Positions 49,867 to 55,151 of a DNA stretch of 64,000 nucleotides are shown piece after piece. A program made the translations under genes and the position numbers. The notes beneath the pieces are model-generated. The model saw only the letters and a program-made list of their open reading frames with translations. It had not been told where the DNA came from and ran no database searches. The stretch is from a virus. Numbering within the stretch: the stretch's first letter is position 1; each line of letters begins with the position of its first letter. The stretch is from positions 1-64,000 of the IMG/VR virus record IMGVR_UViG_3300047323_000694. The stretch is one strand, 5' to 3'.

Positions 49867-51845
49867 TAGCGTTTACTCCTGTGGACGCCATTCGGGTCGA
49901 TGTACTCGGCGCCAGAGGGGAGTGCCGCATAGCCAGCGGCGTCGACAATCTGTACAGGACCGCTAATAACGGGTGGAGTTTGGGGCTGCGCAGCGGGCGC
50001 CTGGCTCTGGGCTTGCTGGGTCGCCTGTGGTTTTCCTGCGTTCGGATTGGCTTTTTCGTACTCGGTGAGCTTTCCAGAAAGTCTTTCTGCGATATCTGAA
50101 AGCCTCTGTTTCGTAGCGCCTACAGAGCCGTTGATACCTTTATCGCCAATATTTAGACCCGACCCCACCTGCGACAAAAACGTGATGTCTTTATCGGTAA
50201 GGACGCCGCTCATAAGTTTCAAATTGTCGACTGTTAACAGGGTTTGGAGTCTTTGAGCTTTGTTGACTAGATCTTGAGATTCGTCGCGCAATGTCGGAAC
50301 CTTTGACCGAACTGTGCCGGTTACATCGTCCAGGCTTTTAGAGCCCGCGATATCACCAACCAGCTTCAACGCTTCTTTGCTCAGGTCATAAGCACCGGCT
50401 TTTTGTGTAGTCAAAGCCTGAGCCGCGTTCGCCGCATCGGTTTTGCGCTTATCGATCTCAAGCTGGTTGAGTTGCCGTTGCTGCCCGGCGGCGCCCGTGC
50501 CATTGGCCTCACCGGTCAGTTTTGCGGTCTCGGCTTCGTTTTTGCCGATCTGAGACTTGGCAAGGCCAGGGGCTGTATCTGTCTCAGCCCTTGTTTTCCC
50601 TGCCTCAGCATTGGTTTTGCCGATTTGCGCCTGCTGCACTTGTCTGGCGAGCGCCTTCGAGCCGTCTGGGTCGATGACAGAATTGTATGCAGCCTTAGCC
50701 TGTGGCGTAGCATCAGGCGCGGCGGCGGCAACCCGAAGGTCTTCGACGTTCTGAGCCTGTCGCGCCTGAGCTGCTGCGGAACGCTGGGCCTGTCCAGAGG
50801 TGATCCCGTTTTGGGCATTCAGAATTGCTTGCTGGTCGCTCTGACGCCCCTGCTGATCAAGAGCTGCCTGCGCCAGGTCATTCCGTGTAATCGGCTGGCT
50901 GCTGTCCCTGATCGTGTTGACACTTGAATCAATGCTTGCCTGCTGCCGAGCAATGGCGAGTGCGTCCTGCTCTTTGTACCCCTGCCGAAGATCAGCCGCC
51001 TTCTGGAATCGATCCATGGCCAGCTTGGCATCGCCTTGGTTGAATTGCGAAAACGAGCCCACGCCATCACCCATGTTCTTAGCCGACCCCAGCGCCGCGA
51101 ACGACGGGCCGGAACCAGCAGCATTCTCGATGTTCGCCTGATCGGTCGGGGACAGGGTTTTAGGGTCGTTTACAGGCGCCATTCCGTAAGCGCTCCGCAG
51201 GTCGGTTTTGTCATTCGAGAACGACGCCGTGCCATCCGGATTGAGCTTGCCTACGATGCTTGCCCGGCCATTCGACGTATCGGCAGTGCCGACTACCGGC
51301 CGATAAGCATCACCAAGAGAGGTAACGGGTGGCTGGACATTGGCTTGGGCCGTCGTATCGATGCTGCGCAAGTCCGGGGCTGTCGGCGCTGGCGTCGCTA
51401 CCGCTGGCGGTGCTTCAGCAATTGGCGCTGGCTGCTGCTGGGCCGCGAGCTGTGGATTTTGCAGGAGGCTGCGGCCGATATTGGCTCCAGCCTCCGCAAA
51501 ACTGGTAGGCGTCTGAGCAGGTAGGCCAGTGCTTTGCGTGTATGCCTGTGACAGGTCCGGAGGTGATGCTGCCGGAGGTGATGCTGCAATTCCAGCGGGC
51601 AGTGCCGATGAAAGGCTGGGCATGCTTGTTGGCGTGGGTGTTGGCGCTGATACCGGATCTGGCGTAGAAGCTGGCGCAGTCTGCGGCGCGACCTGGCTTA
51701 GACTAGTAAGCTGCTGTGACGCCTTGGCGATCGGGCCAGTGTTCGTGATATCGAACGAATTTGGCCTCAACCCCATTTTGGCCGCGCGCTCGGCGGGCGT
51801 CATATAAGTGCTCGCCATCTCACCAATCAAATCACCGACAGCCAT
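49866..51845 (-). CDS. Putative DNA ejection/internal virion protein
   Basis: Ala/Gln/Pro-rich; G.LTDKD; C-terminal Y.ALPSGA.YIDP.G. Confidence 0.65.
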   Translation of the reverse strand: MAVGDLIGEMASTYMTPAERAAKMGLRPNSFDITNTGPIAKASQQLTSLSQVAPQTAPASTPDPVSAPTPTPTSMPSLSSALPAGIAASPPAASPPDLSQAYTQSTGLPAQTPTSFAEAGANIGRSLLQNPQLAAQQQPAPIAEAPPAVATPAPTAPDLRSIDTTAQANVQPPVTSLGDAYRPVVGTADTSNGRASIVGKLNPDGTASFSNDKTDLRSAYGMAPVNDPKTLSPTDQANIENAAGSGPSFAALGSAKNMGDGVGSFSQFNQGDAKLAMDRFQKAADLRQGYKEQDALAIARQQASIDSSVNTIRDSSQPITRNDLAQAALDQQGRQSDQQAILNAQNGITSGQAQRSAAAQARQAQNVEDLRVAAAAPDATPQAKAAYNSVIDPDGSKALARQVQQAQIGKTNAEAGKTRAETDTAPGLAKSQIGKNEAETAKLTGEANGTGAAGQQRQLNQLEIDKRKTDAANAAQALTTQKAGAYDLSKEALKLVGDIAGSKSLDDVTGTVRSKVPTLRDESQDLVNKAQRLQTLLTVDNLKLMSGVLTDKDITFLSQVGSGLNIGDKGINGSVGATKQRLSDIAERLSGKLTEYEKANPNAGKPQATQQAQSQAPAAQPQTPPVISGPVQIVDAAGYAALPSGAEYIDPNGVHRSKR

Positions 51846-51908
51846 TTATCGTCACTCCACCACAGTTAATGATGGCGACGTTATGTGGCTGATTATGGAT
51901 TGGAAGGG

Positions 51909-52124
51909 CTATTTGCCAGCGCGAAAGCCTTCGACTATCCAGCTTATGCTGAATGCCAGAGCGTAGAGGCCTACTATCGGCAGAAGCCCCGAGAGAATGA
52001 CATTGATCGTCGACGTTCTTCCTGCGATAACGGTCAGATCGAATATCAGCCAGAGCACGGAAACGACCAGCCATAGGCGACGAAGCCCAGCCTTGCGTGA
52101 TGGTCTTGAGTTAATGTCGCGCAT
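51909..52124 (-). CDS. Small two-TM membrane protein (paralog B)
   Basis: MRDINSRPS..GLRRLWLV...WIVEGFR. Confidence 0.75.
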   Translation of the reverse strand: MRDINSRPSRKAGLRRLWLVVSVLWLIFDLTVIAGRTSTINVILSGLLPIVGLYALAFSISWIVEGFRAGK

Positions 52125-52186
52125 GGCGTCTCGGTCCGCAAATCAAGGTGCCATGATAGTGCTTCGGATGATTGGGCGGTAGACCC

Positions 52187-52212
52187 AAAAGAAAAGGCAC
52201 CCGAAGGTGCCT
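52187..52212 (-). terminator. Intrinsic terminator closing the RNA array
   Basis: AGGCACC-TTCG-GGTGCCT followed by TTTCTTTT. Confidence 0.85.
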
Positions 52213-52228
52213 ATTCAATGCCGTTTAC

Positions 52229-52482
52229 GGCCCATACCTAAACATGCCGAAGCAAACCAGACCTTGCCACGTCACGCCGTACCAGAGCGAACCAGGCCAG
52301 ACCAAATGATGCTTTCGCACCGCAATGCCGACTGTCGGCAATCGGCATTACGCTGTTTTCAGCCCATATCCTACCAAGCCCAGCCAAGTCTCAGCTTGCC
52401 GAACCATGCCACTCCAAGCCGTGGCCTGCCACATGGCGCTTTCGCACCGCAATGCCTTCTCGTACGAAAAGGCATGACGCTG
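52229..52482 (-). ncRNA. Two-unit putative guide-RNA array: 52-nt structured leader plus 14-15 GGY-NN pentamers per unit
   Basis: Leaders at 52482-52431 and 52355-52304; pentamer tracts at 52430-52361 and 52303-52229; 29/29 pentamers start with G, 26/29 have Y at position 3. Confidence 0.8.
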
Positions 52483-52483
52483 C

Positions 52484-52948
52484 CTACTCCGCCCTGAGTG
52501 TTTTGGATGCCATACCTTGCAGCTGCGTAAGTTTTGCAACGGCGTCAACGTTTCTCCGGCGCTCACCATCGGACAGCTCGCTCAATCTGAGGTTGCGCAG
52601 CTTCTGTCCTGCTGAGCTGAAAATCTTCTTCGCTCCACGCTGGAAGTCGGCGACCGCGATATCAGTCTGCTCATTAGGAGGAACCCAGCGGTAGCCCTTG
52701 CCCCTGATGGATTGCAGGCAGATCTGATGATCTCGCAGCAACTCGACCTTGAATGCCTCGACGTTGGCCAGCCATTCAAACTGACGCTCTCGAAACTTGT
52801 CGGCGGTGAGCTGCTGGTCTTCGGCTAAGCCTGGCATACCGAATCTCACCTCCAGCCAGTCATGCCCGACGATATCGCCATACTTGAACTCAGCGATAAA
52901 ATCCTGCACGGCCTGGCGCCATAATGGATAACGAGCCACCTCACTCAT
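52484..52948 (-). CDS. Accessory protein of the RAMP/array module, possible winged-helix
   Basis: ATGAGTGA overlap with the RAMP gene; L.SIRGKGYR wing-like motif followed by a helical tail. Confidence 0.7.
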   Translation of the reverse strand: MSEVARYPLWRQAVQDFIAEFKYGDIVGHDWLEVRFGMPGLAEDQQLTADKFRERQFEWLANVEAFKVELLRDHQICLQSIRGKGYRWVPPNEQTDIAVADFQRGAKKIFSSAGQKLRNLRLSELSDGERRRNVDAVAKLTQLQGMASKTLRAE

Positions 52949-53516
52949 AAGCCACCTCGAAGCGCCCGAAGCGCGGGCGATACTCACAGACACCAATCAG
53001 CTTTCCAGAGTCTGAGATAGCCTTCTTTGCCTCTTTCAAGTCCAGCACATCAGGATTGACCACAACCTCAAGCGTCACAGCCCAGTCGAGAAAGATCGGG
53101 CGATAGCGCATGATCTTCGCCTGCCCTACTTTCACGCCCCGGCAGTCAACGAAGCGAGTGTCTTCCCAGAGCTTAGCGGGAGTGTCTGGGCCGTCGAACT
53201 CAAGCTTCGCCTTGTCCGTCATTACCATGGCGCCGCGCTTCCAGTGGACGCCAAGCTTTTGGAGTTTCGCCCCCGCCCAGAATGTCGCATCGAAGTTTTG
53301 GCCCGGCACGAAGAAACCTGTTTTCTCGTCGAAATACGCACCTGAGACGAATTCGGATCGAGCAATTGCCAAATGATCGTCGTCGGTTTTTTTGCGTTTT
53401 CCGGTCAGCTCCTTGTGAGCTTTGGTCTCTGGCAATAGAGGGTTTGCCAGCCGGTCGCTGTGCATCATGAGTGGAGAGGTGCCCGTGATGCGGATGTTCA
53501 ACATTTCCATGCTCAT
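52941..53516 (-). CDS. Stand-alone RAMP/Cas7-like RNA-binding protein
   Basis: N-terminal IRITGTSPLMMH strand, VPG.N, RPIF..W, C-terminal G-rich loop G.LIGVCEYRPRFGRFEV. Confidence 0.7.
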   Translation of the reverse strand: MSMEMLNIRITGTSPLMMHSDRLANPLLPETKAHKELTGKRKKTDDDHLAIARSEFVSGAYFDEKTGFFVPGQNFDATFWAGAKLQKLGVHWKRGAMVMTDKAKLEFDGPDTPAKLWEDTRFVDCRGVKVGQAKIMRYRPIFLDWAVTLEVVVNPDVLDLKEAKKAISDSGKLIGVCEYRPRFGRFEVAYE

Positions 53517-54400
53517 GCTGCACTCCCCATGGCGTAACCGCCATGCATGCCAAAACTGGTGTATTGGGCGTAGATCTCTTCGCGGCGTTTATCGAGATTG
53601 AAGAATGCGGAGTGCCCGCCCTGCAACTGATCGAAAAATGCCATCAGCGGGCGGGAGTCCAGCGCACGCGCTGCGTGCAGCATGTCGCGCTTGTATTTGT
53701 GCATGGCTGAAAAGCAAGACATCAGCAAGTACAGGTGCTGGGTCTCAACGCGGTCTAGATGGATTCCTTCCTTTTTGCCTGGACCCCGGATGTATTCGCC
53801 CTCCTTCACCTCGTACGCTGCGATGAAGTTTCTGGCGGAGTCGAGTTGGTCGGCAGGAATGTCAGCCGCCGAACGCACACCGAACGCTGCATGAGTTTGC
53901 GACCAGAGCTTTGCAGTGGCGCGGCGCTGAATGGCGAGAGGTAGGTTGGTCACCTTGCCCTTGATCACCGCGCCGAGCATATGAAAGCCGTCGGTGCCGA
54001 TGGTCTGACTCATAATGGTGGCGGCTTCCGAAGGAGCAACCTGATGGAGTCGCTTCTCGCACTCAATAAAGTAGCGGCGAGCCTGACGCCCCTTGTCGTT
54101 GTTTTCGACCATGGAAAGCTCTTTTGCCATATCCAGCGTGAGGTGATAGTCAATGCGATTGCTGCCGCCCCGCTTTGCTTCATTTTTTTGTGAAGCAATC
54201 ACATAGTCAGAGCCTTCTTCAAAGCCGAACTTCACAATCTTCATTGTCAGCCAGTCAGAGAACTGGCGGCGGCTTTCAAGAAAAGCATGAAGGGTGCGAG
54301 CATCGACGAGCCCTTCTTCTCGTCCGGAAATTGCGCCCCGGAGGATTGGTACAATTGAGCTAACGTTGTTTTCTGTACCATTTACGTTAATATTACTCAT
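53513..54400 (-). CDS. ant: Phage antirepressor (AntA/AntB N-terminal domain)
   Basis: VDARTLH.FL..F.DW, DY.LTLDMAKELSMVE and ARRYFIECEK motifs. Confidence 0.9.
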   Translation of the reverse strand: MSNINVNGTENNVSSIVPILRGAISGREEGLVDARTLHAFLESRRQFSDWLTMKIVKFGFEEGSDYVIASQKNEAKRGGSNRIDYHLTLDMAKELSMVENNDKGRQARRYFIECEKRLHQVAPSEAATIMSQTIGTDGFHMLGAVIKGKVTNLPLAIQRRATAKLWSQTHAAFGVRSAADIPADQLDSARNFIAAYEVKEGEYIRGPGKKEGIHLDRVETQHLYLLMSCFSAMHKYKRDMLHAARALDSRPLMAFFDQLQGGHSAFFNLDKRREEIYAQYTSFGMHGGYAMGSAA

Positions 54401-54475
54401 GACGATTTCTTCCTCGAAGCTGATCTCGTTTCCTGAAGCCCTGGCGTCTCGTAAACGCTGGGGCTTTTTCGTTTT
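54400..54475 (+). ncRNA. Putative sar-like antisense RNA to the ant RBS
   Basis: Plus-strand TTGTTT...TAATAT inside the ant 5' end; terminator AAGCCCTGGCGT...ACGCTGGGGCTTTTT; spans the ant Shine-Dalgarno. Confidence 0.5.
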
Positions 54476-54648
54476 CAGGCCGTTGCCTGCTTGCTCTGCA
54501 TTTCCCGCCATCTCAGACCCTCCTCAATTAACAGGCCAAGTTCCGCATTCAAGCTGCGGCGGTTTGCTTGGGCCTGCGTGCGCGCCCTCTCTCTGAGCTC
54601 TTGCTCTATACGCAAGCTGTAGGCGTTTGCCTGATGCCTGTCATTCAT
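54475..54648 (-). CDS. arc: Arc-like ribbon-helix-helix repressor (57 aa)
   Basis: YSLRI..ELRE..A.ANRRSLNAEL; not in the ORF track. Confidence 0.8.
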   Translation of the reverse strand: MNDRHQANAYSLRIEQELRERARTQAQANRRSLNAELGLLIEEGLRWREMQSKQATA

Positions 54649-54782
54649 GGCGCTTCCCTTTCGTGTGGATTCATAATGCAGTCAAACGATATCGCCACCC
54701 CATTGTGCCGTCAAGTGGATTCTTGATTCTTTTTGAGGCCACGCCCAAACTCTCATTTCATATCACCGTATCGTGGAAAATC

Positions 54783-55151
54783 ATGTCAGACCGGCACGTC
54801 CTCCCCCCTTATTCCCTGCGCATGTCTGCCGAGCTGAGAGAGCAATTGGAGTCAGCCGCCAAAAACAGCAAGCGCAGCCTTAATGCTGAAATCGTCGCCA
54901 GGATCGAGCGAACATTCGCCGAGGATGAGAGTAATGCCGACATCGAAGCGTACGCAGAGTGGGCTAGGCAGAACCCGCAAGAGTCGAATGAGGACAATAT
55001 GATCAGCGCCTTGGCCTATCTTCGTCACCTCATCTCGTCCGCTGAAACTGGCATACGGAACATAGAGCGAATTCACGACGAAAGGACCGGCGAGCACGCC
55101 ATGGCCGTCGACAATCACGGAAACCTCGTAAAAAGCTACGAGGCCGACTGA
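54783..55151 (+). CDS. mnt: Mnt/Arc-like repressor
   Basis: YSLRM..ELRE.LE..A..SKRSLNAEIVAR; divergent from arc. Confidence 0.75.
   Translation: MSDRHVLPPYSLRMSAELREQLESAAKNSKRSLNAEIVARIERTFAEDESNADIEAYAEWARQNPQESNEDNMISALAYLRHLISSAETGIRNIERIHDERTGEHAMAVDNHGNLVKSYEAD

Follow-up and report, generated by a model that had tools for sequence, protein, structure and literature searches.

A very probable type II VIPR system coupled to an anti-repressor gene in a Pseudomonas-type provirus

The first 64,000 nucleotides of the IMG/VR virus record IMGVR_UViG_3300047323_000694 (here called the window) were analyzed, and the locus described here lies on the minus strand at positions 52187-53516. It very likely belongs to type II of the VIPR (Viral Interference Programmable Repeat) systems. 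Homology to Vipr, the RAMP fold, the contact residues, vrRNA tracts, the GGY/NN pattern, a structured tail and vap1, all of which are features of type II VIPR, were found together at the locus. The class, its code and its structure have been published (bioRxiv 10.64898/2026.04.26.720920, 10.64898/2026.04.26.720927, 10.64898/2026.10.15.759431). In the direction of the minus strand, vipr (52941-53516; 191 aa) is followed by a vap1 homologue (52484-52948; 154 aa), which overlaps it by 8 nt (ATGAGTGA), and then by a non-coding array of 297 nt (52187-52483), whose scaffold begins right behind the TAG stop codon of vap1 at 52483. An earlier note on this DNA, made from the sequence alone, had described three coupled minus-strand parts and had pointed to a resemblance to VIPR-type systems. 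All three parts are present, including the gene overlap and a UUCG terminator, and the resemblance is borne out by the Vipr and Vap1 homologues and by tracts that fit the vrRNA definition. The class of the locus is thus already known; not contained in the main texts of the preprints are its coupling to an anti-repressor gene and a scaffold that is specific to its clade.

Vipr and its accessory protein Vap1

The vipr gene encodes a predicted RAMP/Cas7-like guide-RNA-binding protein, as judged from its homology to Vipr of the Escherichia phage SUSP1 and from a model with RAMP fold. Chain D of entry 36pp, described as 'SUSP1 Vipr protein', is the sole match of the 191-aa protein among the PDB sequences (E=5.5e-44), with residues 3-188 aligned to residues 1-187. 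A tblastn search against phage records showed Vipr identities of 89% for Pseudomonas phage Medea1, 45.5% for the P. aeruginosa phage LESphi2 and 40.9% for phiSUSP1, the vipr gene of which is shared by many Felix O1-like phages. Among the PHROGs, Vipr belongs to phrog_4652 (E=1e-76), a family of unknown function, and Pfam returned no family for either Vipr or Vap.

The SUSP1 residues named in the cryo-electron microscopy (cryo-EM) preprint for GGY reading and DNA clamping were mapped onto the window protein by alignment. H17, K33, R39, K82, R138 and R179 of SUSP1 are identical in the window (H19, K35, R41, K84, R139 and R180, respectively), and D177 and W178 are conservatively replaced by E178 and Y179. 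H19, R41, R139 and R180 are invariant across all 24 aligned homologues, and the G-loop (G171...G175-x-x-E-Y-R-P-R-F-G-R-F) is conserved among them. An AlphaFold2 model built on the homologue alignment reached a mean predicted local distance difference test score (pLDDT) of 93.8 and a predicted template modelling score (pTM) of 0.86. Foldseek returned 73 PDB matches for this model at E<=0.001, with Cas7 of type VII, Csm3 and Cmr4 ranking first; the top matches have E values of about 1e-5, a probability of 1.00, template modelling scores of about 0.5 and sequence identities of 8-16%. Since the PDB copy used by Foldseek does not contain 36pp, the RAMP-fold result is independent of the Vipr sequence match. 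The earlier note had proposed a solo RAMP/Cas7-like protein and had suggested just such a fold comparison; the full-length match to SUSP1 Vipr and the Foldseek matches to Cas7, Csm3 and Cmr4 both agree with it. On the alignment and the model, the Vipr of the window is predicted to keep the minimal RAMP fold of one RRM core with a G-rich loop and a thumb, as well as the residues that contact RNA and DNA.

In a BLASTP comparison, the 154-aa protein encoded downstream matched (E=2e-14) the product of the SUSP1 gene that lies immediately behind vipr, with 28% identity over 136 aa. This SUSP1 gene is the vap1 of the VIPR preprint. Vap1 of the window belongs to phrog_5926 (E=3.5e-61), again a family of unknown function. 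In a set of 27 vipr loci, consisting of 24 genomic loci with Vipr identities of 32-85% and three phage loci, vap1 adjoins vipr in 19 (L001, L003-L019 and, with weaker tblastn matches, L022 and L023); SUSP1's own vap1 is too distant to be recovered by this tblastn search. The Vap1 model (pLDDT 83) is helical with a small beta-hairpin.

Guide tracts and scaffold hairpins

The array contains two guide tracts on the minus strand, vrRNA1 with 14 YNNGG units (52433-52364) and vrRNA2 with 15 YNNGG units (52306-52232). vrRNAs are defined by 9-16 YNNGG repeats, in which GGY is conserved and NN is hypervariable, followed by a structured tail (bioRxiv 10.64898/2026.04.26.720920 / 10.64898/2026.04.26.720927), and both tracts lie within this range. 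Of the 29 units in the two tracts, all have an intact first G, 21 also have the second G, and the pyrimidine is kept in 28. Read from 5' to 3', the NN code of vrRNA1 is GT AG AC TT GT AT TC AA GA TT TG TT AG AT and that of vrRNA2 is TT CT CT TC CT AC GT GT AA CT TT TC AT TA AT. Both codes are AT-rich, with about 30% G+C versus about 57% in the provirus. A frame of 12 units was slid along both strands, first of the window and then of the whole record of 98,044 b, and in-phase GG was counted: values of 7-9 were reached at the two tracts alone, and the count was 6 or less everywhere else. The period-5 tracts are real and far from chance. No family was found in an Rfam search of positions 51500-54000 at E<=1, and Tandem Repeats Finder (TRF), run on the 64-kb window, did not report the tracts, which are too degenerate for its score. 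The earlier note had described a single GGY-NN array; the pentamer tracts are indeed present, but they form two vrRNA modules split by a structured scaffold.

The same association was found in the homologous loci. The genomic vipr relatives span from Pseudomonas to Actinobacteria, Bacteroidota and Acidobacteriota, and the nearest relatives of the window Vipr are that of Medea1 and those of Pseudomonas genomes (79-85% identity). In-phase GG runs occur in 26/27 loci, and all of them share the strand of vipr and are neighbours of vipr or vap, so that a search for pentamer tracts beside homologues, which the earlier note had also suggested, was positive. A pentamer logo was built from 30 distinct tracts of the 13 closest loci, anchored at the conserved 3' end. 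The first G is 92% G (1.46 bits), the second G is 69% G (0.64 bits) and position Y is 93% pyrimidine (0.62 bits), and the two N positions are near-uniform (0.03 and 0.04 bits). Across the clade, GGY is conserved and NN is hypervariable.

Some of these loci deserve mention in their own right. The closest genomic Vipr relative (L004, 85%) has arc, ant, vap and two vrRNAs, and its contig is labelled MAG: Pelagibacterium sp. (MAG, metagenome-assembled genome). All remaining close genomic relatives are Pseudomonas, unlike this alphaproteobacterial-binned locus, which suggests either a binning error or spread across classes. In Pseudomonas phage vB_Pae_LESphi2, a prophage of the P. aeruginosa Liverpool epidemic strain (L003:2077-2416), vipr and vap are present and three pentamer tracts lie upstream of vipr, beside cI/cro, an array placement unlike that in the window. 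A distant vipr (35%) in a Zixiibacteriota MAG (L024:3495-3990) is followed by at least 5 tracts with an A after GG (GGANN), spaced by an identical 20-nt element (CTTTCCTTCTAGGCGTACAG). GGANN may correspond to an alternative type of repeat consensus such as the VIPR preprint mentions.

The tracts of the window are embedded in hairpins. The leader scaffold before vrRNA1 (52434-52483, minus strand) consists, in the minimum free energy (MFE) fold, of a long stem A, formed by GCAGCG...CGGUGC, and a hairpin B of the GNRA type (GGUGC-GAAA-GCGCC), and it can be aligned with the inter-tract scaffolds of relatives. The inter-guide scaffold (52307-52363, minus strand) contains a T1 hairpin (GCUG-AAAA-CAGC), a stem A of 13-16 bp and a GNRA hairpin B (GGUGC-GAAA-GCAUC). 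Behind vrRNA2 (52187-52231, minus strand), a second T1 hairpin (GCCG-UAAA-CGGC) is followed by an intrinsic terminator at 52212-52187 (AGGCACC-UUCG-GGUGCCU plus a U-run). T1 is a hairpin of 4 bp, and each tract of the clade finishes in (U/C)AUGGGCYG-N4-CRGC. Internal units carry GCUG/CAGC, whereas the last unit before the terminator carries GCCG/CGGC (window, L004, L008, L009, L013; in the window at 52352-52363 and 52220-52231, respectively). Judged from the aligned sequences, this difference reads as a position-specific compensatory change from U-A to C-G.

Covariation supports the longer stem as well. RNAalifold, applied to 20 scaffold copies from 11 loci, gave a stem A of 16 pairs, with double compensatory changes in 13 of them, and T1, A, B and the terminator all reappear when the complete array is folded by MFE as a single sequence (z=-4.6 versus shuffles). 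A copy of A and B precedes the first tract in the window, while none is found before the first tract in L004, L007, L010 and L011. A and B are therefore likelier to be a tail or a processing element of the unit before them than a 5' handle, and the inter-guide scaffold probably serves vrRNA1 as its 3' tail, acts in processing, or does both.

The arc-ant region and the provirus

Directly upstream of vipr lies an AntA/Ant-like anti-repressor gene (53513-54511, minus strand; 332 aa), which was assigned by Pfam (AntA, E=3.5e-24) and PHROGs (anti-repressor Ant, E=1.1e-44) and whose stop codon overlaps the start codon of vipr (ATGA). It is preceded by an arc-like ribbon-helix-helix gene (54475-54648, minus strand; 57 aa), whose match to Pfam family PF03869 (Arc; E=1.3e-5) exceeds the curated cut-off. 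Upstream of arc, at 54714-54686, a promoter scan found a sigma-70-like match, which is a consensus match only. Together with a divergent Arc-fold regulator, the two genes make up a P22 immI-like set at 53513-55151. As in immI of P22 (mnt-arc-ant), the divergent Arc-fold regulator, the arc-like gene and the anti-repressor gene occur in this order, but unlike in P22 the ant gene of the window is translationally coupled to vipr, vap1 and the vrRNAs. An Ant-like gene is located directly upstream of vipr also in Medea1 and in L004-L009, and Arc/Mnt-like regulators are found 1-2 kb upstream in L010-L014. The main texts of the three VIPR preprints do not mention an anti-repressor. Because the genes overlap and a single terminator lies downstream, arc-ant-vipr-vap1-vrRNA can be regarded as a putative single transcription unit starting with arc. 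With the vipr operon placed behind an anti-repressor under presumed Arc/Mnt-type control, we propose that the ribonucleoprotein (RNP) is made together with Ant, probably early after infection or induction.

The provirus record comprises 98,044 b in IMG/VR, with a CheckV completeness of 100%. Virion genes flank the locus on both sides, all of them on the minus strand; they encode a lytic tail-fibre-like protein, virion structural proteins and a head-closure protein. Medea1 carries this cassette between tail genes. In the Pseudomonas-type provirus studied here, the VIPR locus is a moron within the block of structural genes. Just past its terminator, an open reading frame (ORF) of 71 aa (51909-52124, minus strand) has a predicted membrane segment and no family match; in Medea1, an unrelated small ORF for a secreted or lipoprotein-like product occupies the equivalent place, and the 71-aa ORF may be a second moron.

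Among public sequencing runs, only one, a rhizosphere metagenome, contains the locus in full. The exact Vipr and Vap sequences were found in JGI/IMG and Logan only (contigs of up to 241 kb) and not in NCBI. The locus can therefore not belong to the 664 NCBI-derived loci of the preprint.

Mechanism, targets and alternative explanations

The steps proposed here are taken over by homology from the VIPR systems of SUSP1 and P. fulva, of which the window itself displays the sequence determinants alone. In the cryo-EM structure of SUSP1 Vipr, one protomer is bound per pentamer, GGY is held and NN is presented (bioRxiv 10.64898/2026.04.26.720920 / 10.64898/2026.04.26.720927), and by analogy we infer that the window Vipr would bind in a like manner. 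The array would be transcribed, probably along with arc, ant, vipr and vap1, and cut into two vrRNAs of about 100 nt. Each pentamer would be bound by one Vipr protomer, which would sequester G1, G2 and Y and present NN: G1 would be read by the beta-sheet histidine and the acid of the G-loop, G2 would sit between the thumb arginine and the aromatic residue of the G-loop, and Y would occupy a pocket of the next protomer. The resulting filament would skip one base per unit in reading double-stranded DNA (NNxNNx..., the '1-nt skip' rule), would form an R-loop triplex and would block transcription of the target on either strand, with neither a protospacer adjacent motif (PAM) nor a nuclease being involved. 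Vap1 is required in natural SUSP1 infection (bioRxiv 10.64898/2026.04.26.720920 / 10.64898/2026.04.26.720927 / 10.64898/2026.10.15.759431), and the Vap1 of the window would be needed in natural infections, too.

The likeness to SUSP1 extends over the full length of Vipr (41% identity), in which the residues for G1, G2, Y and the DNA clamp are conserved except that E replaces D177 and Y replaces W178. It includes vap1 directly downstream, the YNNGG vrRNA array behind it on the same strand, the phage setting and the lack of cas genes and of a CRISPR array (a CRISPR array being looked for in the window and Cas1 in the whole record). However, SUSP1 is a lytic Felix O1-like coliphage and the window belongs to a temperate Pseudomonas-type provirus. 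SUSP1 has one vrRNA upstream and three downstream, the window has two downstream vrRNAs of 14-15 units, and its operon is fused behind arc-ant. The type II VIPR clade of P. fulva prophages shares with the window the Pseudomonas prophage setting, vipr, vap1 and several vrRNAs, although the preprint construct lists 'vrRNA1-3, vipr, vap1' and the window has two vrRNAs. The targets of P. fulva VIPR are regulators of resident prophages (bioRxiv 10.64898/2026.04.26.720920 / 10.64898/2026.04.26.720927 / 10.64898/2026.10.15.759431), and by analogy the silencing of such regulators would be the role expected of the window system.

By the published criterion, a target matches at least 80% of the NN positions under the rule of a 1-nt skip; for the two guides, the corresponding sites are GTnAGnACnTTnGTnATnTCnAAnGAnTTnTGnTTnAGnAT and TTnCTnCTnTCnCTnACnGTnGTnAAnCTnTTnTCnATnTAnAT. 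No self-target was found in the 98-kb record, where the best sites (19/28 for vrRNA1 and 20/30 for vrRNA2) equal the maxima of shuffled guides. Self-targets are likewise absent in published systems (bioRxiv 10.64898/2026.04.26.720920 / 10.64898/2026.04.26.720927). Speculatively, a competing prophage, phage or satellite would most likely be targeted in its AT-rich regions; like the earlier note, we infer an aim at competing phages.

Several results weigh against a functional type II VIPR system. The full 1-nt-skip patterns, with up to 3 mismatches, gave 0 matches for either guide in 401 Pseudomonas-genus genomes, and exact 10-unit seeds gave 0 matches in IMG/VR. Seeds of 8 units gave 35, 60, 26 and at least 119 matches in IMG/VR, which fell to chance level once rescored over the full length; the best rescored match among those listed was 24/30, with 16 bases forced by the seed. 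A 9-unit seed had 28 matches in JGI metagenomes, none of them beyond chance. In addition, the second G is degenerate in 8/29 units, the public runs that contain the locus are three rhizosphere DNA runs, with no RNA run listed, and the tail differs from that of SUSP1, which is a pseudoknot and not a three-hairpin scaffold. For Vap1, Foldseek gave no match at E<=0.001, and the weak rows at E values of about 0.2 were mostly winged-helix DNA-binding domains. Type II Vap proteins have been described as 'WH-like' (bioRxiv 10.64898/2026.04.26.720920 / 10.64898/2026.04.26.720927); the Vap1 model would fit this description loosely, without establishing a winged-helix fold.

The best of the 9-unit-seed matches concerned vrRNA2 (26/30, 18 bases forced) and a conserved gene for a membrane protein with multiple transmembrane segments (peptide LLLSLTVVNLFVFY), which occurs on the environmental contigs L269, L270 (L270:388-1491), L281 and L292. 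As a vrRNA2 target it was rejected, the match being judged to be chance or a common hydrophobic motif and the gene not a phage regulator.

The lack of a target in any collection searched, together with the missing second G, would suit a decaying or idle VIPR copy, with inherited genes and tracts, guides that match nothing and no selection in this provirus. We consider this very unlikely. The two ORFs are intact and coupled in translation, they share 60-89% identity with their relatives, and the contact residues are invariant; none of the 29 units has lost G1, and compensatory changes preserve the pairing of the scaffold hairpins. Moreover, internal degeneracy is frequent in working vrRNAs (bioRxiv 10.64898/2026.04.26.720920 / 10.64898/2026.04.26.720927), and the collections are samples that were searched solely with exact seeds or with up to 3 mismatches. 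Unlikely as well, though less so, is a system whose RNAs act mainly on rival VIPRs, either as decoy or hijacking guides on a foreign Vipr or by being aimed at a rival VIPR/immI cassette, and not on an unrelated gene of a competitor. The October 2026 preprint (bioRxiv 10.64898/2026.10.15.759431) describes vrRNAs with vipr, other vrRNAs or decoy sites as targets, and among the 27 VIPR loci the best site of vrRNA2 is a 22/30 match in the P. laurentiana locus (L008:1850-1893), in the AT-rich promoter region between a helix-turn-helix (HTH) repressor and the arc-ant-vipr operon. This match exceeds all 200 unit-order shuffles (maximum 21); however, at 73% it stays under the published cut-off of 80%, and its mismatches are scattered over 8 units. 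When relatives of this promoter were sought in 151 genomes, L008's own genome alone matched, so that no better-matching relative was obtained. vrRNA1 reaches only 18/28 among the 27 loci, which is the null level, and the locus has an intact vipr of its own.

Two further explanations question the identity of the components. The Cas7/Csm3 fold could be thought to point to a remnant or minimal CRISPR-Cas module (e.g., type IV or type III-like) whose array was missed. The Cas7 backbone proteins of Class 1 (Csm3, Cmr4, type VII Cas7) do share the RRM/RAMP fold, the G-rich loop and the thumb, and both Cas7 and VIPR (for the window by homology) polymerise along a guide RNA in steps of fixed length, bases being flipped by the thumb. 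VIPR advances by 5 nt, of which three are sequestered and two are presented, whereas Cas7 advances by 6 nt with one base flipped, and unlike Class 1 CRISPR-Cas, VIPR has no repeat-spacer array, adaptation genes, Cas5, Cas6, Cas8, Cas10, Cas11 or nuclease. The earlier note had stated that CRISPR repeats and cas1/2/3/5/6/8 genes are lacking. This holds for a CRISPR-type repeat-spacer array in the 64-kb window (TRF) and for Cas1 (PF01867) in the 98-kb record, where the controls were positive; no search aimed at each of the other cas families was made, and the neighbouring genes are arc, ant, vap1 and virion genes. The closest relative of the protein is Vipr and not any Cas7, and the adjacent RNA is pentamer-coded, which makes a CRISPR remnant extremely unlikely; the locus is not CRISPR-Cas, with which it shares the RAMP fold alone. 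Alternatively, the tracts might be sites for a ring-shaped RNA-binding regulator, as in a TRAP-like or CsrA-like titration RNA, unrelated to the genes upstream. Periodic triplets can serve proteins of the TRAP type, and TRAP binds 11 (G/U)AG triplets at a spacing of about 5 nt. Yet the tracts accompany vipr in 26/27 loci across phyla, always on the same strand, no Rfam family was matched, and in the cryo-EM preprint it is Vipr itself that reads GGY. Such a regulator is scarcely credible here.

VIPR is programmable in its recognition of DNA, has been described only recently and is a proposed ancestor of the CRISPR RAMPs, so that its natural history gains from every locus that is identified correctly. 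The locus described here adds an instance, absent from NCBI, from an environmental (rhizosphere) provirus, and it leaves the understanding of the VIPR mechanism unchanged. The scaffold of the Pseudomonas/Betaproteobacteria clade, with T1, a long covarying stem and a GNRA hairpin, could mark processing sites. The conserved coupling to an anti-repressor hints at the timing of VIPR deployment. As a doubtful but specific extension, VIPR of this Pseudomonas clade may be the distal part of an immI-like arc-ant operon, in which an anti-repressor and an RNA-guided silencer are fired from one Arc/Mnt-gated promoter on entering a prophage-holding cell, with vrRNA2 maybe aimed at the promoter-operator of a rival arc-ant-vipr operon. 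If true, this would be VIPR acting against VIPR at the level of the switch and not of the coding sequence.

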